From Promethearchaeota archaeon (GTDB taxonomy: Archaea > Asgardarchaeota > Thorarchaeia > Thorarchaeales > Thorarchaeaceae), in assembly GCA_027031765.1 (NCBI GenBank), contig JALVPN010000003.1, positions 1 to 11,081 on the forward strand: 11,081 nucleotides of DNA, read 5' to 3'. The stretch's first letter is position 1, and each line of letters begins with the position of its first letter. Shown piece by piece: positions 1 to 11,081 of this stretch. The notes under the pieces are model-generated. The model did no database searches, had not been told where the DNA came from, and saw only the letters and a program-made list of their open reading frames with translations. Position numbers and translations under genes: made by a program.

Positions 1-1083
1 GATTATGCGGTCCCGTTCGTCAGCAGTGATTGGCTTCGAACAGGTAGGGCAGCGCAGGCCCTCAGTACTGTCGCCATCCCCGGCCTCCCGGAGGCGGGAA
101 ATCTTCTCCCGCAGGTCACGCTCGACACCCTGGAACGCACCGATCTGGCGGTTCGTTTCTGATGTCTTCGACTGCAGGTCATCTAGGGCGGCCTCCTGCT
201 CGGCCAGCTCCCGCTCAAGTATTTCCCGTCGGAGCCTGACTGCCTTCTCGTCGAACGACACGAGACCGACCGCCTCTATGTCCCTGTCGCGGAGGCTGAC
301 AGCATCGTTGTAGCGAGCGGTCGCCTGCTGCAGCTGAGTGGCCAGTTGCTGCACCGTGTCCAAGACGTCAGGAGGGGGCAGGACGGCGAGGAACTCCTTG
401 AACTCACGCATCTCGGCACGCCTCTGCTCAAGGTCGTCCTCCAACGACCGCAGACGACGACGTGTGTCCTCGACCTGTTTCTCGATGACCTCGGGACGGG
501 TGAAGTCGGCCTCAAGCGCTACGAGGCGGCCCTTGAGCTCTGCCTCAAGGTCGTTGAGCTGGTCACGCATACGTTCCAACAGCTCAATATTGTATACCTT
601 TACCAGCAGGTCTCGGAGGACGGAGGGCGTTGCACTTGCAATGAGGGCGACCTCACCCTGTCGGACGAGCAGGGTGTTGAGGGCCTGTTTCAGCTCGAGG
701 TTGAGGACTTCGGTGAGCTTGGACGCCACGGACTGGCTCTTGTCCGCGACCCGCTTCCAGGCGCCCTTGACCTGTGCGTAGAGCGAGACCTGCATCCTTG
801 ATGCCTGGTCGTATGAGCGGTCAATCTTGTAGCGCACACCGGCGACCTCGAAGACCAGTACGACACGACAGTAGGTGGACGAGAAGTTCACCAAGTCTTC
901 GTTCTTCAGCTCAACAGCTGACGCCCCCCACAGCGCCCACAGTATCGCCTCGAACAGTGACGACTTGCCGGTGGAGTTAGGGCCACGTACAAGTATGAGG
1001 CCGTCTGGGAGCTCCCCTTCCTCGGGAACCCTTACGCGCAGGAACGGCTTGAAGTTCTCAATCTTGAGGCTCACTATCTTCAT
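1..1083 (-). CDS. rad50: Rad50 DNA double-strand break repair ATPase, N-terminal 361 aa (runs off the left edge)
   Basis: Not in the ORF track; translated by hand from ATG at 1083 with no stop down to base 1: MKIVSLKIENFKPF...LILVRGPNSTGKSSLFEAILWALWG (Walker A), ...LNTLLVRQGEVALI (Q-loop), a long heptad-rich coiled-coil segment, then LRCPTCSKPI (zinc hook, 40-51). Overlaps the mre11 3' end by 26 nt. Confidence 0.97.
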   Translation of the reverse strand, partial: MKIVSLKIENFKPFLRVRVPEEGELPDGLILVRGPNSTGKSSLFEAILWALWGASAVELKNEDLVNFSSTYCRVVLVFEVAGVRYKIDRSYDQASRMQVSLYAQVKGAWKRVADKSQSVASKLTEVLNLELKQALNTLLVRQGEVALIASATPSVLRDLLVKVYNIELLERMRDQLNDLEAELKGRLVALEADFTRPEVIEKQVEDTRRRLRSLEDDLEQRRAEMREFKEFLAVLPPPDVLDTVQQLATQLQQATARYNDAVSLRDRDIEAVGLVSFDEKAVRLRREILERELAEQEAALDDLQSKTSETNRQIGAFQGVERDLREKISRLREAGDGDSTEGLRCPTCSKPITADERDRII

Positions 1084-2392
1084 CCATGAAGTCCCCCACG
1101 AACTCTTCGGGCACCATCTTCCCTGTGTCGGCGCCAACTGCAAGGCGGAGTGCCCTGACGGCAATCTTGGTGAGCACATCGGGACTGTACTTCTCCCCGA
1201 TGTCGAGAGTAGACAGGTACTCCCTGAAGTCGTCCTCCGGGCTCTCGATCAGGTACTCAGACTCTATCTCGGGGTATGCTAGTGGGGTCTCTGCAGACAT
1301 GTCCGACCGCAGGTCCCAGACGAACTGCGCGATGTTGTACGTCGAGTCCCGTGCGAGGACTGATGAACGGAGGGCCTCAAGGGCAATCCGGGTCTCCAGT
1401 GTGCCCCCCGTCTTTGGAGAGCCCTCGAGCACAATGCGCACACGGGCTGCGGTCTCAGGGTCGAACTCCCCGACAAAGCCCTGTCCCTTGAGCCAGTCCT
1501 CGACCTGCGCCACGACCGACTGGGGCGTTGCCGCACCGTCCATGCTGAGCTTCTTGTTCAGTACAGGACGTCTGAACTCGATGATGTGTGGCTCCACATG
1601 TGGTGCACTGCCCGGTGAGACCTCGACCACGAGGAAGCCCTTCTCATGTCCTGCCTCATCGAAGCGCCACCTCTCTGGGGAGCCCGCATACCATGCCTTC
1701 GCCGAGTGCTTGTGCTGGCGGTGGTCGTGGCCAAGGGCGATGTAGTCGTACCGGTGGCTGAGAATAGAGGAGTAGAGCGTGCCATCGAGCGACATGCCGT
1801 GTGCAACTGCGATGGACGGCCTGTCTGCGCTTGTGGGGGCCTGGTGTTCAAGGACCCACCCCTCGAACTCCGGCATGAGGTCAGCAGACCGCAGCGGTCC
1901 CGGCTGCATGAACGGAAAGCAGAACACATCCAGCTCGTCCAGTCCAAACATGAGGGGCTCTCCGGACGCGAACGCCCGTTTCAGGTCCTGCTGGGTCGCA
2001 ACATACAGCCCCGGCACAGCCAGTCGCAGGGTGTCCAAAAGGGAGACCTCAAGGGTACGGAACAGGCCGTGGTTGCCCTCGATTATGACCACCGGTATGC
2101 CGGTCTGCTCTATGAAGTCCTTGAGCACGCGGATAGCGGTCTCCTGTGCCACTACGGGGGGCTGTGACGGGTTGCCCTCCCAGGGTGAGTCGTACAGGTC
2201 GCCAGAGTGGACAACGACATCAACGGGCGGGTCGAGAGCAGCGATGGCACTGAATATCTCCTCGAAGCGGTCGTAGAAGTCGTTCTCAAGGAGGCGGGAG
2301 CGCATCTCGACAGCCCAGATGTTCTGTCGGATACCCTCCTGTGGCCTGGCCCCCAAATGAGTGTCGGACAGGTGGGCAATCCGGACGACCAT
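1058..2392 (-). CDS. mre11: Mre11 (SbcD-family) nuclease, calcineurin-like phosphoesterase fold
   Basis: Phosphoesterase motifs IAHLSDTHLG, VVHSGDLYD, IEGNHG, VAHG, YIALGHDH and YAGSPERWRFDE, then a capping domain and a helical C-terminus. Lies between herA and rad50. ATG 2392 is preferred over GTG 2398 because GAGG (2400-2403) lies 7 nt upstream. Confidence 0.95.
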   Translation of the reverse strand: MVVRIAHLSDTHLGARPQEGIRQNIWAVEMRSRLLENDFYDRFEEIFSAIAALDPPVDVVVHSGDLYDSPWEGNPSQPPVVAQETAIRVLKDFIEQTGIPVVIIEGNHGLFRTLEVSLLDTLRLAVPGLYVATQQDLKRAFASGEPLMFGLDELDVFCFPFMQPGPLRSADLMPEFEGWVLEHQAPTSADRPSIAVAHGMSLDGTLYSSILSHRYDYIALGHDHRQHKHSAKAWYAGSPERWRFDEAGHEKGFLVVEVSPGSAPHVEPHIIEFRRPVLNKKLSMDGAATPQSVVAQVEDWLKGQGFVGEFDPETAARVRIVLEGSPKTGGTLETRIALEALRSSVLARDSTYNIAQFVWDLRSDMSAETPLAYPEIESEYLIESPEDDFREYLSTLDIGEKYSPDVLTKIAVRALRLAVGADTGKMVPEEFVGDFMDEDSEPQD

Positions 2393-2401
2393 GGTCACCC
2401 C

Positions 2402-4168
2402 TCACATGATGTGCTCTTCTTTCTTCTCTCTTTTGGTACCATACTGTGCCTGTGTCCTCTCGAACAGCTCGTCGAACTTGGGGACGTGGACCGGGACTGG
2501 CATGTCACGGTATGAGGCTGTCAGGATGGCGTCGCCACGCCCCATGACCCGGAACTCGTCCTCGAAACCGGCAATGTTGACGCTGGCATTGTCTATGCAG
2601 GCTGATATCTCGCGTTCATTGCCGAGGCGGAGGTTGATCTCCGTGTTCGTCTGACTGAGGATGACATTGTCAAGCACACTCACCTGTTGACTGACCACCA
2701 AGAGGCCGATGTTGAACTTGCGGCCCTGCCGGGCGATGTCCTTGAATACCGAGCCCCCGCGCATCAGGTCTGGGTTGAGCAGCGAGGGTGCCTCCTCCAC
2801 CGTAACAAGCACCACAGGTAGCTCGCTGGTGTCCTTCACTGGAGCACTGTCACCTGCTGCACCACGCCCACGGTAGAACCCTTTTGCCTTGTCCAGCACC
2901 CCTCGGAGGAAGGTGGCTGGCAGGCGGCTCTTTGCCTGGCTCTCGAAGTCAGCAATCGTCCCGCTGCTCTTCACTGCACGGCGCATGTCGAATATTGTAC
3001 GCGCCACCACAGTGGTGAGCAGGAACTGGCTGGTCTCGGACATTAGGCTGGTGTTCACTATCAGCACGCGACCAGACTCCATCGCCTCGTAGATCTCACC
3101 GAGCACGGACTTGCCCGACTCGACGAAGATGGGCGACCTCTCAATGAAGCCCAGACGTCGGCGCACCGCGTGAAAGGTCACGGCCTGCACACCACTCGGG
3201 CTCTCCTCCATCTCAAGTATTGATGCAATCCAGTTCTCCCCCTTGATTGCATACTGTCGGTCAATGAAGAGCTGCATCTGTGGTCGGAACTCCATGATTG
3301 AGTACAGGTCACGGGGCTGGATTTCCTTCCAGAGTATGCGGATATCGCGTGCATAGCGCTGGATCTCACGTGGAGTACCGCGTGCACTGGTCGTGAGGTA
3401 GTAGTAGTCACCAATGACATGTCTGCGCGTATCACTGTCCAGCGCTGCTACAATGTCATTGACACCATACTTGTCTACACCCCGTGCGAACTCGTCGTGG
3501 GGGTCTATACAGAAGGCCGAGATTGACGGCCCAGCGGCCTTGCCGTCCAGTACCTTGATGTTGTGGTCGATGATAGACTTGATGAGCACCATCATCAGGT
3601 TGCTCTTTCCAGAGCCGGTAGCACCAAAGATTGCCACATGCATCGGCAGGTACTCTGCGGGGAGGGTCACGGGGATGTCGAGTTCACGTTCTCCGGCCTG
3701 GAGATTACCAATGTAGATGTCACCTCTGAGCTGACTGGCGAGCATGTCCGGGAGAGATGAAGGTGTGACCGTCCGTGTTGGACGGTATACCTCAGCCAGC
3801 AGAGCAGGCAGTCGCCGGGGTGGCCGGAACACCCATTTTGTCTTGCCATGTCCGTCAGTGACCTGTTCGGCATAGCCCAACAGGCGGCCCTTGAGGAGCA
3901 CTAGCAGGTTGCGGTCGATGCCAGAGATGTAGGCTTCCCCCTCCACAAGGAATGTCCCGGCCATGGCGTGCGTGTCCTTCACAAGACGCATGTAGTTCTC
4001 CAGCTCAAGCACTCTGAAGAGGAATATACGCTCGCCCCCGTCACGCTTCGAACGGATAAGCAGCATCTCTCCAACGCAGATGTCCTTGTTGGCACCAATG
4101 ACCAGGAGCCCGACCTGGTTGCCCCCACCGACAATTCCCAACCTCTCACCCAGTTCCGTCGTACTCAT
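2402..4168 (-). CDS. herA: HerA bipolar helicase/translocase (FtsK-HerA superfamily)
   Basis: N-terminal HAS-barrel-like region, Walker A HVAIFGATGSGKSN (3602-3625), Walker B VLVTVEEAP (2786-2800), IARQGRKFNIGLLVVSQ arginine-finger/sensor region, and C-terminal GRGDAIL. Operon context with nurA, mre11 and rad50. Confidence 0.95.
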   Translation of the reverse strand: MSTTELGERLGIVGGGNQVGLLVIGANKDICVGEMLLIRSKRDGGERIFLFRVLELENYMRLVKDTHAMAGTFLVEGEAYISGIDRNLLVLLKGRLLGYAEQVTDGHGKTKWVFRPPRRLPALLAEVYRPTRTVTPSSLPDMLASQLRGDIYIGNLQAGERELDIPVTLPAEYLPMHVAIFGATGSGKSNLMMVLIKSIIDHNIKVLDGKAAGPSISAFCIDPHDEFARGVDKYGVNDIVAALDSDTRRHVIGDYYYLTTSARGTPREIQRYARDIRILWKEIQPRDLYSIMEFRPQMQLFIDRQYAIKGENWIASILEMEESPSGVQAVTFHAVRRRLGFIERSPIFVESGKSVLGEIYEAMESGRVLIVNTSLMSETSQFLLTTVVARTIFDMRRAVKSSGTIADFESQAKSRLPATFLRGVLDKAKGFYRGRGAAGDSAPVKDTSELPVVLVTVEEAPSLLNPDLMRGGSVFKDIARQGRKFNIGLLVVSQQVSVLDNVILSQTNTEINLRLGNEREISACIDNASVNIAGFEDEFRVMGRGDAILTASYRDMPVPVHVPKFDELFERTQAQYGTKREKKEEHIM

Positions 4169-4173
4169 AACAA

Positions 4174-4179
4174 CACCTC
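4174..4179 (-). promoter_or_regulatory. Shine-Dalgarno GAGGTG for herA, overlapping the nurA stop codon (translational coupling)
   Basis: Minus strand reads ...ctgTGAGGTGttgttATG: the nurA TGA is fused to GAGGTG, 5 nt before the herA ATG. Confidence 0.7.
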
Positions 4180-5500
4180 ACAGACCATAGTCCTCCCGCA
4201 GTGGCCGTACCGGCCGGTCGTCAAGGCCTGCCCCGTGACGCACCTCACGGCACATCTGTCTGAGCACCTCAACGTCCTCATGCTTGAGTTCGCACACGAC
4301 GTGGGCAAGCGCGAGCGGCACGGGATAGCCGTACCAGCGGGCGTCCCGTGACATCAGTTCGAGGTCGCGGAACAGCTTGCGCTCACGTGCGTGGGTCTCC
4401 TCATTGTCATCCTCCACGAACACTTCCTTGCGCCACCACACCCAGTCAAAGTCGACCCTTGAGGGACGGTTGTCCTCGCTGAAGGAGAACAGGTAGGGTA
4501 TTGCAAGGTGTGGGGGGATGTACGGCCGGTTCTTGAGGATATTGAGGCCACCGGACGGGTGGTCCCTGCCCGGGAGGAGGCAGAACCACTTGCACGCGCC
4601 GGTGCCGGACGCATGGCCCTGACAGCCAGACCCATCACTCCACTTCTCAATGGCCATCCTCGCAATGCGGTGTGCAAAGGGGACACTGTGACCCTTGCTG
4701 ACGGCACAGAGGACAGTCCCCTTCTCTCTTGCAAGCGCACAGAGGTGGCGCAACATGAAACCGCTCGGCATCACGGGGATGCGCTCCTGGCTGATGAACA
4801 CAGAGAGGGCCCCATCCAGCAGGAGGTACTTTGGCTGCAGGTCGCTCTCCAGCACCCTGCGGGCCGCAGCGTACTCCATCGCTTTGCGGACCTCCTCATG
4901 AACCACTGCAGAGGAGAGTATCTGCTCACGGCCTATCAAGTCCTCCATCTCAATCAGTCTGTCTTTGAAACGGTCAAACTGGTTGGAGGCGTTATGACGG
5001 AGCCGTCTCTGCAGCTCAAAGTCGTCATCGAAGAACGGACGGATCAGCTCCTCGATTTCGACCTCGTACACTGTTTCGAGGATCTCGGCCAGCTTCTTCT
5101 TCGCGTCCCCGCGCACTGTGGAGTTCCAGTGGACATCAAAGTGTGGCTGTGGGCCAAGGGTCTGGGCCAGTTCGTCTGGGCTCACAGGTGTGAACGGTGT
5201 GTCCGACCGTATGTTGGACCTCAGGACAGATGTCGCTGTCGTAAAGAAGTGCACGCGGACATCGTTGAGCATTGCAAGGCTGTCTGTACCCGAGCCGTCC
5301 ACAGCAGCCACTTCGAAGTCCTCGAAGTCGTCAGGCGGGTCATTGAGCGGTATGGGGTCGAGGAGCACTATGAGGTCATCGCGCAGGCGCGACTCATCGG
5401 CGTCCAGCAGGTGTTCCTCAAGGAGCTCCGCATTGTTGATGTCCTCGAACACGGCCGTCAGGGCCTTGCGCAGGCGGTCCGAGTGGACTCTTGCGAACAT
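4178..5500 (-). CDS. nurA: NurA 5'-3' nuclease (RNase H-like fold)
   Basis: Motifs VAAVDGS (5291-5302), YLLLDGAL (4808-4819), AVSK, and C-terminal GYPVPLALAH; adjacent to herA. The track's GTG at 5512 is part of a GAGGTG SD (5510-5515) lying 9 nt before ATG 5500, so 5500 is the preferred start. Confidence 0.92.
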   Translation of the reverse strand: MFARVHSDRLRKALTAVFEDINNAELLEEHLLDADESRLRDDLIVLLDPIPLNDPPDDFEDFEVAAVDGSGTDSLAMLNDVRVHFFTTATSVLRSNIRSDTPFTPVSPDELAQTLGPQPHFDVHWNSTVRGDAKKKLAEILETVYEVEIEELIRPFFDDDFELQRRLRHNASNQFDRFKDRLIEMEDLIGREQILSSAVVHEEVRKAMEYAAARRVLESDLQPKYLLLDGALSVFISQERIPVMPSGFMLRHLCALAREKGTVLCAVSKGHSVPFAHRIARMAIEKWSDGSGCQGHASGTGACKWFCLLPGRDHPSGGLNILKNRPYIPPHLAIPYLFSFSEDNRPSRVDFDWVWWRKEVFVEDDNEETHARERKLFRDLELMSRDARWYGYPVPLALAHVVCELKHEDVEVLRQMCREVRHGAGLDDRPVRPLREDYGL

Positions 5501-5509
5501 GGGCTCAGA

Positions 5510-5515
5510 CACCTC
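5510..5515 (-). promoter_or_regulatory. Shine-Dalgarno GAGGTG for nurA
   Basis: Minus strand cccGAGGTGtctgagcccATG; matches the archaeal anti-SD consensus with a 9-nt spacer. Confidence 0.7.
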
Positions 5516-5926
5516 GGGTCTTACTCTTCCGTGGCAGTGGGCCGGGTCTGGGCAGGGCCAGTCCAGTCCTGTTTGCCCGGCATTGCGGTACCGTCAGCAG
5601 TACAGCACACCATGCCCTCCACCAGAGCTGATAAGAACATACTACTCGGTACTGACGAGTGGGAACAATGACTCACCCGGCCCACACTGGTCGGTCAACC
5701 TCCGACGACAGACTGCAACTGTTAACGGGCACGCATGACGGCTGAGAGGCGCGTGGTACCAGCACTACAGACCGGACAGCTGGCAGGGCGGACAACTGGG
5801 GCCGGGCGTCGTTGGTGTTGTGCACCGTCACTGGCGCCATGAGGACGACACCGACCAGTGTGGCCAGCACTCCCCCAGGAGGGCCTGTAGAGGCGCAGTC
5901 ATCCGCCAATGACCACACAGAGGCAA

Positions 5927-5945
5927 TTTGTTTTTAAGAAACAAA
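5927..5945. promoter_or_regulatory. AT-rich 7-5-7 inverted repeat containing a TATA-like box (putative promoter plus operator)
   Basis: TTTGTTT-TTAAG-AAACAAA has perfect 7-bp arms and contains TTTTTAAG (5931-5938). It is a conspicuously AT-rich tract in the divergent intergenic region, about 60-80 nt upstream of the plus-strand gene start. Confidence 0.55.
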
Positions 5946-6015
5946 GGCAGTCAGAATCCTAACCGCAGTGTTCTGGCCTCGGTGCGGCCCAAACAGGATG
6001 TTGGGAAGTGTTTGC

Positions 6016-6711
6016 TTGCTGAGAATACGCTACTTTGGCCACTCCACGTTCGCACTTGAGTCCGCAGAGACCTCACTGCTACTGAACCCTGGTATCTGGG
6101 ACGGGGAACCGGTAGTGCCTGATGACTTTGATGTCAGGGTCATCGCACTCACCCACCATATGGACGACGCCGTAGGCAATGCCACCGCCATTGCTGAGAA
6201 CTCCAAGGCGTGGATACTCGGCAATGAGAGGACGATAGAGAGGGTACGCGAACAGGGGGGCAGACCATGGCTCCTCCATGTGCTCAGACCAGAGGAGCCC
6301 TACACGATTCCGGGCCTGAGCATAACGCCGTACTCGCTGCAGAGGGCAGACCCGGACACCGGCGAGCGTTTTGAGAACCTCGGCCTGTACATAGAGATGG
6401 GCTCAATGCGAGTGGGGTATCTCGGCGACACAGTTGTGAGGGGGCCATTCGGGCAGCTCGAGATGGACATCCTCATCACACCAGTGGGGGGTGGCGATGT
6501 GTTCCCGATCAAGGATGCAGTGAGCCTCTGCATTGATGCAGCCCCGCGGCTCGGTATCCCGGCACGTGCATCGTCGCCTGACCAGGTGTCCAAGTTCGCC
6601 AAGTACGTGGACCAGTTCAGTAGTTCCACGGTGCCAATGGTCATGGAGCCCGGACAGGTCCTCGAGGTCATGTGGGCTGCCGGTAACGAGTTCAGATACA
6701 CACTGTCCTGA
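6016..6711 (+). CDS. Metallo-beta-lactamase-fold protein (UPF0173/UlaG-like) with a degenerate metal-binding site; probable pseudoenzyme
   Basis: RIRYFGHSTFALE...LLLNPG...IALTHHMDDAVGNA...RVGYLGDT...DILITPVGG...DAVSLCIDAAPRLGIP follows the UPF0173 motif layout. TTG 6016 (preceded by GGGAAGTG at 5 nt) matches the usual family start. ATG 5998 is an alternative. Confidence 0.85.
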   Translation: MLRIRYFGHSTFALESAETSLLLNPGIWDGEPVVPDDFDVRVIALTHHMDDAVGNATAIAENSKAWILGNERTIERVREQGGRPWLLHVLRPEEPYTIPGLSITPYSLQRADPDTGERFENLGLYIEMGSMRVGYLGDTVVRGPFGQLEMDILITPVGGGDVFPIKDAVSLCIDAAPRLGIPARASSPDQVSKFAKYVDQFSSSTVPMVMEPGQVLEVMWAAGNEFRYTLS

Positions 6712-6779
6712 CATCCGTGTGCGTCGCACCGAAGAGGCTGGGACGGGCCATCCCGGAAAGGTATACGCAAGGTCGAGTG

Positions 6780-8573
6780 GTGAGTCAGTTGAGCGAGAAC
6801 AGGAAGATGGTCGTGATAGACCTAGAAGAGAGCGAGAAGACCGTCATTGGGGAGCTCAGCGAACTCCAGAGTGCTGAGGCTACAGGAGTGCTGAGTATCA
6901 ACAATGTCTCGGAACAGAACAGGATCTGGAACGTCAGGGTGCTGCTGGATGACACGAGAGGACGTACGACTTTCGAAGAGGATGTCCTCCATGCTGGAGA
7001 GATCGACGCGGGCAGCCAGTGGAGGACCGAGTATGGCATAGAGATAGATGCACCGGTACTGACGCTGACAGAGGTCTATGACACCTGCAGTACTGTGGAG
7101 AGCGAGAAACCACACTGGGCGTATGCCTTTGGAAAGGAGAACCCTGTGAGGATTACCATCACAGTGAAGAACGAGTGTGACGGACAGATTGACGACATAG
7201 CGGTCACCAAGTGGATTCCACCGGAACTGGACAACGTCGTTATCGAGAGCATGGAGTCTGGGAACGCCAACTATGACCCTGAGAACCGTCAGGTCGTATG
7301 GAACGACTTCATAGTATACCCGGGAGAGAGCTCAACACTGGTAATCACCGCCACCGCGACGGTCGAGGACAGCAGCCCCAAGGATGCTGGCAAGATACTG
7401 GTCACCTATCGTGCCGAGGGACAGCAGAGGTCAGTCCTGGCCCCAGACATGACCGCGCTCACTGACTTCCTGACCGGGATTGACACTGCCGAGACCGAAC
7501 CGAACCAGTGGGAGTGTACACTTGAGTGTTCAAACGAGAGTGACCTGATGGTGCGGCTCGACCGTGCAGAGGCGTATGTGGAGCCAGAGGGGGGTGGCGA
7601 GAAGGTCAAGATGATTGACGAGGCGCCGGCACTGGAGATGGAGCCGAACGCAGAGTGGAGCAAGATGTTCGAGATTGAGAGCAAGTCGCCACCTCGCTGC
7701 ACACACGATGTTGTGTACACACCCATGCGCACTGTCACAAAGAGGGTGCTCGGTACCATTGAGAAGGTCCCACAGACCATCCCGGTCTACCAGATCGACT
7801 ACATGAAGGAGTTCGACCCGCCATCAGTAGCAAGCTTCGACAAGACACCTGTGGAGGTGACTGTCGAGGTCAAGAATGTGGGCTCGGCCAGGCTCAACGA
7901 GGTCACGGTGGAAGACCACCTGCCAGATGATGTCATGCCACCAAAACGCGAGCACATCACGGTCTGGGTCAAGGGCGAGGAGTACACGGGGGACTATGAG
8001 TTCAGTATCGAGCCCGACGACCAGGATCCTGAGAAGCCACACACCCTTACGTTCAGGATAACGGGGCTCAAGGACACTGTCGGCGAGCTGGAGCCCGGTG
8101 AGAGCATCAAGATCAACTACGCCATCATGGCATGGCGCAACAGACCCGAGAAGGAGTACCCGTCACCAATCCACTGCACAGCGAACACATACCCGGCGGG
8201 CCTCATCACTGAGATAGGCAGTGCTCCCGACGGGCACAAGCTCGGTGTCATCTACAAGAAGCGCCGGATTGCGGTGAAGAAGGGCATCAACCGGGGTGCG
8301 GGTGCTGGCGAATACGATGTTGTGATAGTTGTGGAGAACAAGGGTGAGGTGACTGTGGAGAACGTGGTCGTCAGGGACTGGATACCGGCCGGTTTCGAGT
8401 TCCAGTCTGTAGACCCACCAGAGGAGGAGCCATCACTCCAGTCTGCAGAGGACGGCACCGACCTCATCTGGAGGTGGGCCCGAATGAGCCCTGGCGACAA
8501 GAAGAAGATGGTAGTACATGTGCGCGGTGAGGGAGAGTACGAGCGCCGGGAACCTGTGGTCACATCGGACTAG
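6780..8573 (+). CDS. Acidic multi-beta-sandwich protein: putative N-terminal mu-homology (adaptor mu/delta-COP-like) domain plus three Ig-like/DUF11-like domains
   Basis: The long ORF has coding-like composition and is certainly a gene. Repeated V.ITITVKN / VTVEVKN / VIVVENK...V.D.(I/L)P...W....PG(E/D) units are typical of DUF11-like sandwiches. The N-terminal VVIDLEESEKTVIGELSELQSAEATGVLSI resembles the start of the mu MHD. There is no signal peptide or TM segment. The start is uncertain (GTG 6777/6780 or ATG 6807). The confidence refers to the MHD call. Confidence 0.6.
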   Translation: MSQLSENRKMVVIDLEESEKTVIGELSELQSAEATGVLSINNVSEQNRIWNVRVLLDDTRGRTTFEEDVLHAGEIDAGSQWRTEYGIEIDAPVLTLTEVYDTCSTVESEKPHWAYAFGKENPVRITITVKNECDGQIDDIAVTKWIPPELDNVVIESMESGNANYDPENRQVVWNDFIVYPGESSTLVITATATVEDSSPKDAGKILVTYRAEGQQRSVLAPDMTALTDFLTGIDTAETEPNQWECTLECSNESDLMVRLDRAEAYVEPEGGGEKVKMIDEAPALEMEPNAEWSKMFEIESKSPPRCTHDVVYTPMRTVTKRVLGTIEKVPQTIPVYQIDYMKEFDPPSVASFDKTPVEVTVEVKNVGSARLNEVTVEDHLPDDVMPPKREHITVWVKGEEYTGDYEFSIEPDDQDPEKPHTLTFRITGLKDTVGELEPGESIKINYAIMAWRNRPEKEYPSPIHCTANTYPAGLITEIGSAPDGHKLGVIYKKRRIAVKKGINRGAGAGEYDVVIVVENKGEVTVENVVVRDWIPAGFEFQSVDPPEEEPSLQSAEDGTDLIWRWARMSPGDKKKMVVHVRGEGEYERREPVVTSD

Positions 8574-8632
8574 TCCGGTGCAAGCAGTGCGTACACTGTG
8601 CTACCACATGTTTCACGGATGGGGCCGACCCC

Positions 8633-8998
8633 TCATGCCTGCTCCCCTAGATGACCGGCCGCCTCAGACTCGGCCTCCAACAGCTCACGCCGGGTCGCCT
8701 CCAGTTCGGCGTCCAGCAGCTCAAGGGGGACGTAGTCATCGGAGTCCTCCGTGTAGTGAGTGTCAAGCGTGAACAACACCTTGAACCCGGCCAGCGCAGA
8801 GTGGAGGGCATCCGAGATATCGAGGATTGCAGTGCTCAGGTCGGCACTGTTCATATCCTCGGCCTTGTGCCTATAGATGAAGTCGTAGGCCCCCCGCACA
8901 GGTGTGAACCCCATGGCTGTGAGTTTCTGGATTATCTTGGAGGGGGTGGTCCCCTCACTGTTGAACCATATCTGGACTCTTGTCACATATGGGGACAT
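8633..8998 (-). CDS. Small conserved archaeal hypothetical protein (121 aa; probable ferredoxin-like alpha/beta domain plus acidic helical tail)
   Basis: The true start is internal to the track ORF 8633..9250: ATG 8998 with SD-like GAGGCG upstream. QIWFNSEGTTPSKIIQKLTAMGFTPVRGAYDFIY...ALAGFKVLFTLDT resembles, from recall, a small uncharacterised archaeal family (FNSEG..PS....L...GF.P..G.YDF.Y). The upstream 84 codons overlap raSEA and are not protein-like. Confidence 0.8.
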   Translation of the reverse strand: MSPYVTRVQIWFNSEGTTPSKIIQKLTAMGFTPVRGAYDFIYRHKAEDMNSADLSTAILDISDALHSALAGFKVLFTLDTHYTEDSDDYVPLELLDAELEATRRELLEAESEAAGHLGEQA

Positions 8999-9045
8999 TA
9001 TCCGACGCCTCGTAGATTGGATACTGCACCCGCCGCCCGGTTTGG

Positions 9046-9058
9046 TTTTATCCTTTAC
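9046..9058 (-). promoter_or_regulatory. Possible promoter (purine-rich BRE plus TATA-like element) for the 8633-8998 gene
   Basis: Minus strand GTAAAGGATAAAAccaaa, an A-rich tract about 48 nt upstream of ATG 8998 in the 94-nt intergenic gap. Confidence 0.35.
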
Positions 9059-9092
9059 TCCACCGGCCACTTGAGCCCTGACAGTACACGGC

Positions 9093-10208
9093 TCAGGCCC
9101 TGCTGCCTGTGTCCACCAACCGGTCACCATCTCCCACAAGCAGTGACATGTCCTCGTGTACCAGCAAGTAGCGCCACTGGTTGATGCAACTGCAGACCGG
9201 GACATGGAGATGCCTGACATCCTGTGACAGGGAGAAGGCGCGGATCCCACGGGTCACACGTGGATCACAGAGCCCACAGTTGTGGGGACCACGCCTCTTT
9301 CCCGCGGCGACCGGGTCGGACACGATTTCGACCGCCGGGGCTACCTGACCCCTAGCGGTCCGGAGGAGCTCGACCAACGTCCACAGCCACGGCGGTGCAT
9401 ACAGTCCACGTCTCCAGAGCCGTTCCACCAGCGTGTTGCGCTGGATATTGACTGGGTTCACAGACACGGTCCTGACACCCATGTCCGCAGCTGCCACTAT
9501 GGTCTCCAGTGCATCGACCAGTGCGTCGCGCTCCGTGAGGAACGGTGGCTTCAGGAGCACATAGGCACGTACACCCACCTCATACTCGGCTGCGACCTCT
9601 ACAGTAGCACGGAACTGGTCGGTAGTGAACCCTTTGTTCACCGCCACCATACGGACCGGGTCGCTTGAGGACTCGAGGCCCACACCGACCTGCACAGAAT
9701 GGTGGTCGAGGACAGAGCGCACTCCTGACAGGGCCTCACCGGTGACGAACTCGGGCCGTGACTCGAGCACCACCTCTTCCACCCTGTCGTCAGAGGCAAT
9801 GAGCTGCAGTATCCGCTCGCGGGCCTCCAGTGGCACTTCGCACGGGTCGAGAAAGCTCCCACTCGTATAGACCTTCACGGCAACCGGCGGCGACAGGTCG
9901 CCTGCACTCTGCATTGCACTCCTGAACTGCAGGACAAGGTCGTCCGACGTGACCGGGGCTGACGTCCCATCGAGGAGGTAACTGCACATCGTGCAGCCCC
10001 CGTCCTCAGAGCGTGCATGTGAACAGCCCTGCGTGGCAAGGACTACTGCAATGGCCTTTCCCGGCCTGCCGGCCACCCTTGCATCGGCCACCCATGTCGC
10101 GGCGGGCCTGGTCGGGTCTCTCCGGCGGCGTGTGTGGACTGACGTGCCACGGGCCTCAAGAGAGGAACGGCGGACAATGCCGGAGAGGACATCGTAGAGC
10201 GACTGCAT
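9093..10208 (-). CDS. raSEA: Archaeosine biosynthesis radical SAM protein RaSEA (TIGR01210-like)
   Basis: VVLATQGCSHARSEDGGCTMCSY (expanded CX9CX2C radical SAM motif), VKVYTSGSFLD, VVLESRPEFV, VGVGLESS, AYVLLKPPFLTE, SVNPVNIQRNTLVERLW...PPWLW and SDPVAAGKRRGPHNCGLCD. Immediately downstream of arcS, with an AGGTGA SD. Confidence 0.92.
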   Translation of the reverse strand: MQSLYDVLSGIVRRSSLEARGTSVHTRRRRDPTRPAATWVADARVAGRPGKAIAVVLATQGCSHARSEDGGCTMCSYLLDGTSAPVTSDDLVLQFRSAMQSAGDLSPPVAVKVYTSGSFLDPCEVPLEARERILQLIASDDRVEEVVLESRPEFVTGEALSGVRSVLDHHSVQVGVGLESSSDPVRMVAVNKGFTTDQFRATVEVAAEYEVGVRAYVLLKPPFLTERDALVDALETIVAAADMGVRTVSVNPVNIQRNTLVERLWRRGLYAPPWLWTLVELLRTARGQVAPAVEIVSDPVAAGKRRGPHNCGLCDPRVTRGIRAFSLSQDVRHLHVPVCSCINQWRYLLVHEDMSLLVGDGDRLVDTGSRA

Positions 10209-10209
10209 A

Positions 10210-11081
10210 CTATCTCACCTTGTGTCTTATGTCGACAGCGACCCCCGACTCAAGTGCGCACATCTCGGGCCCCGACATCTTGCTACGTCCCACAGCGACC
10301 ACACGACCATCGTCTGACCGCACCACCACCTCGTCGCCAGGGCGGACTGCCGCGTCTGCACCGGTCACACCGACCGCGAAGAGGGAGCCACCACGGATCT
10401 CATGGCCCTCGAAGGCGACCCAGTAACGGTCGAGCGTGGCGAGCTGCTCTCCCCCTGCAAGTGTGAGGGACAGGTGCCCTTGGGGCGCCACGAATGCACA
10501 CAGTTGACCCCTGTCCGTCCTCACGACCACCATGCGGTCAAGCCGGCCCGTGAGGCGGCAGCCATCGGGGACGAGGACATCACCGGCAGGGGGCCCGAAC
10601 TGGAAGTCTGCAACGGCCCGCAGGGTGTCCACCACCTCTGTAGACGGGGCGCGTGTCAGCGAGAGCGAGGCACACAGTCCTCTGAGGGCCTCTGTCAGGG
10701 AGTCAAGGGAGGCCTTCGCAGTATGTGCCTGGCCAGTACACGTGTATATGACCTCCTGACGGGTGTCGGGCTCCGCGTGCCTGACAATCTCCTCGTAGCC
10801 GCCGGACACATGCGCGACAACAACACACGACTCGTCGAACTTTGAGAGGTGCGTCGCGAGTGCCTCTGCTGCAATCTCGACCTCCTCGGCGTCCCAGTCA
10901 CCCGTAACTGGCAGGTCGTAGTTGGCTGCCGGGAAGACCCGTTCGAGTTCCCGGGGCACAACACCGATTGGGCTCGTGACGATGACCTCTGAGAGCCACC
11001 GACGCCTCTTGGACATTGCCGAGCTGATGGCCTGTGCGAACAGCCTGTGAGACCTAGAGGTGGAATAGGGCTTTCTTGCAG
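10210..11081 (-). CDS. arcS: Archaeosine synthase ArcS (TgtA2), C-terminal part with PUA domain (5' end off the right edge)
   Basis: The frame stays open upstream of the track's Met 11016 to the window edge: ARKPYSTSRSHRLF...SEVIVTSPIGVVPRELE.VFPAANYDLPVTGDW (ArcS/DUF5591-type motifs). It ends in a PUA domain, GGSLFAVGV...VRPGDEVVV...VAVGRSKMSG.EM...SGVAVDIRH. Confidence 0.93.
   Translation of the reverse strand, partial: ARKPYSTSRSHRLFAQAISSAMSKRRRWLSEVIVTSPIGVVPRELERVFPAANYDLPVTGDWDAEEVEIAAEALATHLSKFDESCVVVAHVSGGYEEIVRHAEPDTRQEVIYTCTGQAHTAKASLDSLTEALRGLCASLSLTRAPSTEVVDTLRAVADFQFGPPAGDVLVPDGCRLTGRLDRMVVVRTDRGQLCAFVAPQGHLSLTLAGGEQLATLDRYWVAFEGHEIRGGSLFAVGVTGADAAVRPGDEVVVRSDDGRVVAVGRSKMSGPEMCALESGVAVDIRHKVR

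Follow-up and report, generated by a model that had tools for sequence, protein, structure and literature searches.

The window analysed here is a stretch of 11,081 nucleotides from a Promethearchaeota archaeon of the family Thorarchaeaceae (assembly GCA_027031765.1, contig JALVPN010000003.1, positions 1 to 11,081 of the forward strand). Its focal gene (6789..8573, + strand, stop codon included) encodes a 594-residue protein composed of several beta-sandwiches, and the N-terminal ~320 residues of this protein are very probably a mu-homology domain (MHD), i.e., a remote homologue of the corresponding domains of the adaptor protein (AP) mu subunits, delta-COP and the muniscins. The MHD is a banana-shaped pair of beta-sandwiches found in AP medium subunits, delta-COP and muniscins. 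A domain of this kind had been proposed in an earlier note, made from the DNA sequence alone, for positions 6807-7460, starting at the ATG at 6807. This segment does lie within a single long open reading frame (ORF; 6717-8573, + strand), in which that ATG is codon 7; the start is set to TTG 6789 (N-terminus MSENRK) because the orthologues begin with MSEEKR or MSERKK. Two residue numberings are therefore used: positions within the MHD are those of P0003, counted from ATG 6807, and positions at the predicted protein interface discussed below are those of the 594-residue protein, counted from TTG 6789. The protein has a pI of 4.5 and a net charge of -51, and a plain hydropathy scan, which is not a dedicated predictor of export or membrane insertion, finds neither in it nor in 22 relatives (n = 23) a hydrophobic segment resembling a signal peptide or a membrane anchor; judging by these sequence features, it appears to be soluble and cytoplasmic. 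More than 200 full-length homologues show 63-70% identity to it, and nearly all the named ones come from Candidatus Thorarchaeota, in agreement with the Asgard source that the earlier note had suspected. The source genome (2.95 Mb, 95% complete) contains one copy of the gene, and the homologues are publicly annotated as “DUF11 domain-containing protein”.

On the predicted structure described below, the protein consists of an MHD (residues 1-322) with subdomain B nested in subdomain A, a linker, and two DUF11/CLIPPER domains, all encoded on the + strand. The N-terminal strands of subdomain A (6807..7136, residues 1-110, approximate boundaries; AlphaFold2 strands from 2-14 to 85-92) carry the family motif I-D-x-x-E-x-E...G...G-x-L-x-x-x-N-P-S...R-I-W, in which E8, G27 and N33 are conserved in 68, 70 and 75 of the 75 aligned members, respectively. 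Subdomain B (7137..7421, residues 111-205), a sandwich of the DUF11/CLIPPER type by sequence as well, is followed by the strands that return to subdomain A (7422..7502, residues 206-232, again approximate; AlphaFold2 strands 214-218 and 221-231), where HMMER pairs residue 218 with residue 395 of the 418 residues of AP-3 mu. An extra beta-sandwich of ~75 residues (7503..7724, residues about 233-306; six AlphaFold2 strands within 234-306) with conserved positions W235, C237, N243, S245, W284 and P296 precedes the closing MHD strand (7725..7772, residues 307-322; AlphaFold2 strand 308-320), which is basic and keeps G316 and K320. This sandwich is read as a probable insertion into the MHD because the structural matches span model residues 1-322 and align only 209-226 of them, with ~100 unmatched; the reading comes from alignment ranges rather than from coordinates. 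All MHD structural alignments stop at model residue 321-324, opposite the C-terminal residue of the matched chain (mu2 435, mu3 418, delta-COP 511), so that the domain end previously placed at 7460 (residue 218) was too early and the match reaches residue 322 (nucleotide 7772). The first DUF11/CLIPPER domain (7824..8171, residues about 340-455) is covered by Pfam CARDB and DUF11 stretches. A short basic linker (8172-8303, pI 10) separates it from the second (8304..8570, residues about 500-588), which contains the best DUF11 stretch in the Pfam search (503-573, E 7e-18) and matches TIGR01451.

A search with residues 1-335 against 1.8 billion cluster representatives yields 170 clusters at E 0.001 or better, from which the query and 74 diverse members were combined in an alignment of 75 sequences (hereinafter A1; mean column identity 28%). 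AlphaFold2 run on the whole protein as a single sequence, with no alignment, gives a pLDDT (the confidence measure of the method) of 37, and this model was discarded; with A1, residues 1-335 form an all-beta model with a pLDDT of 97.1 and a pTM (predicted template modelling score) of 0.87. This model has the organization of an MHD, an all-beta fold of ~250-280 residues with two sandwiches and subdomain B inserted within subdomain A. In a Foldseek search against PDB, MHDs fill the best 50 rows, with AP-3 mu (4ikn) at E 5.5e-12 and a template modelling (TM) score of 0.67 by target, and the two-subdomain matches extend over 209-226 aligned residues, which is the kind of match that the earlier note had named as support for its reading. 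The outcome that would have spoken for a different fold, namely, structural matches to generic DUF11, CARDB or S-layer Ig domains only, did not occur. In a shape search of the ESM Atlas, the non-archaeal clusters closest in shape are those of eukaryotic AP-mu and muHD domains (TM 0.56-0.59).

The sequence comparison points in the same direction. When the A1 profile is run against all PDB sequences, AP-3 mu comes first (E 7e-5), with delta-COP at E 0.005 and AP-2 mu at E 0.01, and every one of the best 22 distinct PDB sequences (E 7e-5 to 0.11) is an MHD. The alignments reach over residues 290-395 of AP-3 mu, 121-207 of delta-COP and 301-380 of AP-2 mu, and the significant signal sits mainly within subdomain B, together with the strand that follows it. 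Pfam Adap_comp_sub (PF00928) is matched in 35 of the 75 family members at E 0.01 or better (best E 2e-10), one of which, of the Lokiarchaeia type, aligns from profile position 12 to 234 of 259; DUF11 is matched on the same stretch in 47 of the 75. The three by-eye alignments of the earlier note hold up in these comparisons: the N-terminal strands that it had compared with AP-2 mu are superimposed in the structural alignment with model residue 1 on mu2 172 (HMMER likewise pairs profile positions 7-30 with the corresponding strands of mu3, at a non-significant -3.8 bits); the stretch compared with delta-COP, residues about 112-197, falls on delta-COP 121-207 and on AP-2 mu 301-380; and the segment KILVTYRAEG...APDM falls on AP-3 mu, where it covers the final strand of subdomain B and the strand after it. 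The MHD reading itself, which was the core of that note, is supported by both the profile and the Foldseek matches. The protein is a remote homologue of MHDs and not an orthologue of any mu subunit.

Several observations weigh against the MHD assignment. The window protein scores 24.7 bits against Adap_comp_sub (E 1.7e-5), with residues 109-200 aligned to positions 122-217 of the 259 in the profile; this score is below the curated gathering cut-off of 31.6 bits, so that the protein does not qualify as a member of PF00928. Residues 113-192 score slightly higher with DUF11 (27.9 bits, above the cut-off), and DUF11 is the only Pfam family that passes its cut-off in this protein (whole-protein score 65.4 bits over three stretches; TIGR01451 at E 3e-10). 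A profile made of residues 1-110 finds nothing significant among the PDB sequences (best E 0.33), with yeast delta-COP at E 0.8, colinear over the first 30 positions; for the subdomain A half, then, homology is suggested by the predicted structure. In addition, profile positions 110-203, which correspond to subdomain B, also align with the two DUF11 domains at the C-terminus of this protein, and because of these internal matches subdomain B is considered a DUF11-type sandwich by sequence. These are the facts on which one could build the alternative that the protein is merely a multidomain DUF11/CLIPPER repeat protein of the adhesin or envelope kind, in which two packed Ig-like sandwiches resemble MHDs by convergence and not by common descent; the public annotation fits this alternative, and so does the description of CLIPPER domains as extracellular stalk modules (10.1101/2025.04.25.650565). 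Taken in its entirety, however, the N-terminal module fits MHDs far better than CLIPPER, and unlike the DUF11/CLIPPER (PF01345) proteins, whose CnaA-like domains form the stalks of surface adhesins and which are described as extracellular, the window protein has no export signal in the hydropathy scan. We consider the convergence explanation unlikely, and its surface-adhesin version is rejected on account of the missing export signal. The assignment to the MHDs is retained, and subdomain B appears DUF11-like in sequence, so that the family would bridge the prokaryotic CLIPPER domains and the MHD.

Directly upstream of the MHD gene, on the same strand, lies a gene (6016..6711, + strand, TTG start by orthologue alignment) for a 231-residue protein of the metallo-beta-lactamase (MBL) fold, assigned by Pfam to Lactamase_B_3. 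The same arrangement is found in loci L001, L015, L019, L020, L010, L030 and L013, and the lineages involved are Thorarchaeia (the window and another genome of this group), a second family of the same order, Jordarchaeales, a further Asgard family and Ranarchaeia; comparison of the two homologue lists indicates that many MBL and MHD homologues apparently share contigs. A complex prediction with the full-length protein and its MBL neighbour gives a median score of 0.67 over three runs, compared with 0.00 for the best control of three; the score expresses confidence of the model and is not a measurement. This mark is reached by 58 of 80 solved complexes and by 2 of 110 mismatched pairs, counts that are rough since own alignments were used. 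At least 50% of the contacts agree between the runs, and the pLDDT of the partner is at least 89. We know of no solved complex of an MHD/CLIPPER protein with an MBL-fold protein, and for this reason the high score is unlikely to come from model memory. The predicted interface is on the first CLIPPER domain (D351-K-T-P354, M383-H389, Q412, A445 and M447), and on the MBL side it involves conserved residues 165-174 and 193-203. Those orthologues from Jordarchaeia and Ranarchaeia that have the MBL neighbour retain the DKTP motif, and together the interface and its conservation support binding of the MBL-fold protein to the first CLIPPER domain, as far as a model can indicate. A point on the other side is that in representatives of 15 further Asgard families the MBL gene does not lie upstream.

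The metal-binding motif of the MBL-fold protein, HxHxDH, is intact in Jordarchaeales (HSHPDH) and degenerate both in Thorarchaeota, where it reads THHMDDA, and in Ranarchaeia, where it reads SNTDEEN. Judging from these motifs, the nature of the partner may differ between lineages, some having an enzyme and others a pseudoenzyme.

With the A1 profile, the module is detected in 168 of the 201 sampled Asgard genomes, in 72 of the 85 high-quality genomes and in 55 of the 59 genera, so that the family is near-universal in Asgard archaea and not sparse; many genomes of Lokiarchaeia/Promethearchaeota carry 3-6 copies. Paralogues in this group (about 700 residues; L011:8001-10142, proteins P0158 and P0159) have an N-terminal extension of ~115 residues that matches no Pfam family. 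The module also occurs outside Asgard. In the ESM Atlas, a cluster from Thermoplasmatota matches the whole model with TM 0.85 over 321 residues, and a single-sequence phmmer search with the thorarchaeal query detects P0180 at E 8e-15, a sequence that maps at 84-90% identity to genomes of Candidatus Thalassarchaeaceae and related marine euryarchaea. The Pfam domain AF2028_C is also present in the Thermoplasmatota cluster, a hint that points to Archaeoglobi. Full-length matches are present in 42 of the 151 sampled Thermoplasmatota genomes at E 1e-69 or better; these E-values are partly circular, given that A1 includes relatives of those sequences, and the phmmer match is free of this circularity. 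The protein is therefore no “eukaryotic signature” restricted to Asgard.

Several members from marine Thermoplasmatota of the Thalassarchaeaceae type (P0180, P0298, P0164, P0175, P0192 and P0212) have 100-380 proline-rich residues (PPAPPGLPPMP...) before the MHD-like module; no export signal is found in these proline-rich proteins. In locus L012, the MHD-like gene (8001-11558) is flanked by a gene for a GPN-loop-type ATPase and a gene for an EMC3/TMCO1-like membrane insertase.

The fold is that of a cargo-binding domain, and one could accordingly propose that the protein is a working counterpart of mu-adaptin or delta-COP, a cargo-selecting component of an Asgard coat that reads short sorting motifs in the tails of membrane proteins. 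The pocket that binds tyrosine motifs in mu2 is formed by F174, D176, K203, W421 and R423. With model residue 1 on mu2 172, Asp5 of the window protein falls on the position of D176, and the earlier note had equated the same residue (6819-6821) with D176. The position agrees in the structural alignment, but Asp is present in this column in only 20 of the 75 members, and the column equivalent to K203 contains N, I, K or R. These two pocket positions vary across the family; the conserved features look structural, and a YxxPhi pocket is unsupported as a family trait in the alignment. Every domain of the window protein is acidic, unlike mu2, which carries basic lipid-binding patches. No N-terminal longin domain is fused to the protein, as had been noted from the sequence: the MHD fold begins six residues after the protein start, and Clat_adaptor_s (PF01217) is unmatched in the Pfam scan. 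Neither fusion nor conserved linkage to genes for adaptins, sigma-like or longin proteins, or coat components was found in the 27 loci examined. Genes for eukaryotic AP subunits need no linkage, so that its lack does not settle whether the protein assembles with two large adaptins and a sigma subunit. The sole conserved neighbour is the MBL-fold protein. Full-length copies are present in the Thermoplasmatota as well, and to our knowledge no coat machinery of such kind exists in these archaea. In favour of the proposal, the domains of all five AP subunits have been reported in Asgard, with the suggestion that there could be a similar complex in these archaea (Eme et al. 2023; PMC10307638).

Genes for GTPases and related proteins are found near some orthologues. 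An Arf/Ras-family GTPase gene is convergent to, and immediately by, one orthologue, a 518-residue Arf-domain protein is encoded 2.6 kb from another, and a Roadblock/LC7 gene adjoins the orthologue from Ranarchaeia (the sites are L014:6791-7306, L013:2993-3289 and the locus of P0130). The Arf-family genes by orthologues in two loci and the Roadblock gene in one would favour a coat component, but two adjacent GTPase genes are expected by chance in Asgard genomes, which are rich in small GTPases (PMC10307638); genes for Arf-like GTPases, Roadblock proteins and actin occur inconsistently near the orthologues and were dropped as a link to trafficking. Taken together, these observations make a working coat subunit improbable, and a direct role in the selection of vesicle-coat cargo, though possible, is likewise improbable.

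The rest of the window contains archaeal genes. Positions 1-5512 (- strand) are occupied by an archaeal cluster for DNA-end resection, which includes genes for a Rad50-like ATPase (1-1179, partial, running off the window end), a Mre11-like phosphoesterase (1058-2398) and a HerA-like helicase (2402-4168), and a 444-residue ORF with no Pfam match (4178-5512) where NurA would be expected. Convergent to the MHD gene is a small conserved gene (8633-8980, - strand; ~113-116 residues, MxxYVTRVxxWFxSEG..., no Pfam match), which is likewise convergent in two thorarchaeal loci, L001 and L002. The region 9093-11081 (- strand) encodes the C-terminal part of an archaeosine-synthase-type protein (10210-11081; DUF5591, TGT_C2 and PUA domains), followed by a 371-residue radical-SAM-like ORF, the orthologue of which in L001 has a faint radical-SAM match; the arrangement resembles the ArcS-RaSEA pair. 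A functional link of the MHD gene to the Rad50/Mre11/HerA cluster or to the archaeosine genes was considered and dropped because these neighbours are not conserved outside close relatives.

The family itself is already known, as a published Asgard Adap_comp_sub candidate, and does not represent a new kind of protein. Table S3 of Eme et al. 2023 (Nature 618:992; PMC10307638) lists 44 Adap_comp_sub candidates in Asgard; among the entries of this table that were compared (Jord, Hel, Hermod and Loki), most share the N-terminal motifs and the architecture of the window protein, and the table also includes three Thor entries. The remark in the earlier note that related domains have been reported in Asgard archaea is accurate, then, and concerns the same family. 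That study reports Pfam matches only and calls the distribution sparse, with no structure, boundaries, partner or non-Asgard occurrence. A literature search found no paper that gives structure, boundaries, partner or non-Asgard distribution for this family, and the main text of two recent structure-based Asgard surveys makes no mention of the protein. What is new here is the presence in 168 of 201 Asgard genomes, the Thermoplasmatota copies, the DUF11-like subdomain B and the predicted MBL-fold partner.

Unlike the MHDs of AP-1 to AP-4 mu and delta-COP (PF00928), it lacks the longin domain and has the ~75-residue sandwich before the last strand and two CLIPPER domains; besides its acidity, variable D176 and K203 positions and sub-threshold Pfam score, it shows no sign of a heterotetramer. 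A second known group comprises the muniscin and stonin-type MHDs (FCHo1, SGIP1, Syp1; PF10291, muHD). The muniscin domain lies at the C-terminus, downstream of an F-BAR domain and a linker, whereas that of the window protein is N-terminal and precedes the CLIPPER domains; DPF motifs, the ligands of the muniscin and stonin-type MHDs in solved complexes, are not known as ligands in archaea.

Among the possible roles of the protein, that of a soluble scaffold seems the likeliest. It might be co-expressed with the upstream MBL-fold protein in Thorarchaeia, Jordarchaeia, Ranarchaeia and certain further lineages, and hold this neighbour on the first CLIPPER domain, a prediction to which we give about even credence. 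The MHD would thereby be left free as a platform for binding of proteins or peptides, a possibility that we put forward tentatively. On a broader scale, the MHD might descend from a cytoplasmic archaeal scaffold in which a DUF11/CLIPPER-type sandwich is nested in another one, rather than being an invention of vesicle traffic in eukaryotes or Asgard. This scaffold would be near-universal in Asgard and common in Thermoplasmatota, including marine group II with its long proline-rich N-terminal tails; its original task would be that of holding partners, among them an MBL-fold (pseudo)hydrolase, and eukaryotes would later have fused a longin domain to it, giving rise to coat adaptors. This scenario of descent is speculative, and we regard it as somewhat doubtful as it stands.

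How the adaptors of vesicle coats arose is a central unsettled issue in eukaryogenesis. For this family, a weak Pfam hint is turned here into a high-confidence fold assignment with domain boundaries, and with a family-specific profile the published picture changes from a sparse to a near-universal distribution in Asgard. The occurrence in Thermoplasmatota weakens the family as a marker of Asgard-specific “eukaryote-like” trafficking because it is not confined to Asgard. Two leads follow from the analysis, namely, the predicted complex with the conserved MBL-fold neighbour and the sequence bridge that may connect DUF11/CLIPPER domains with subdomain B of the MHD.

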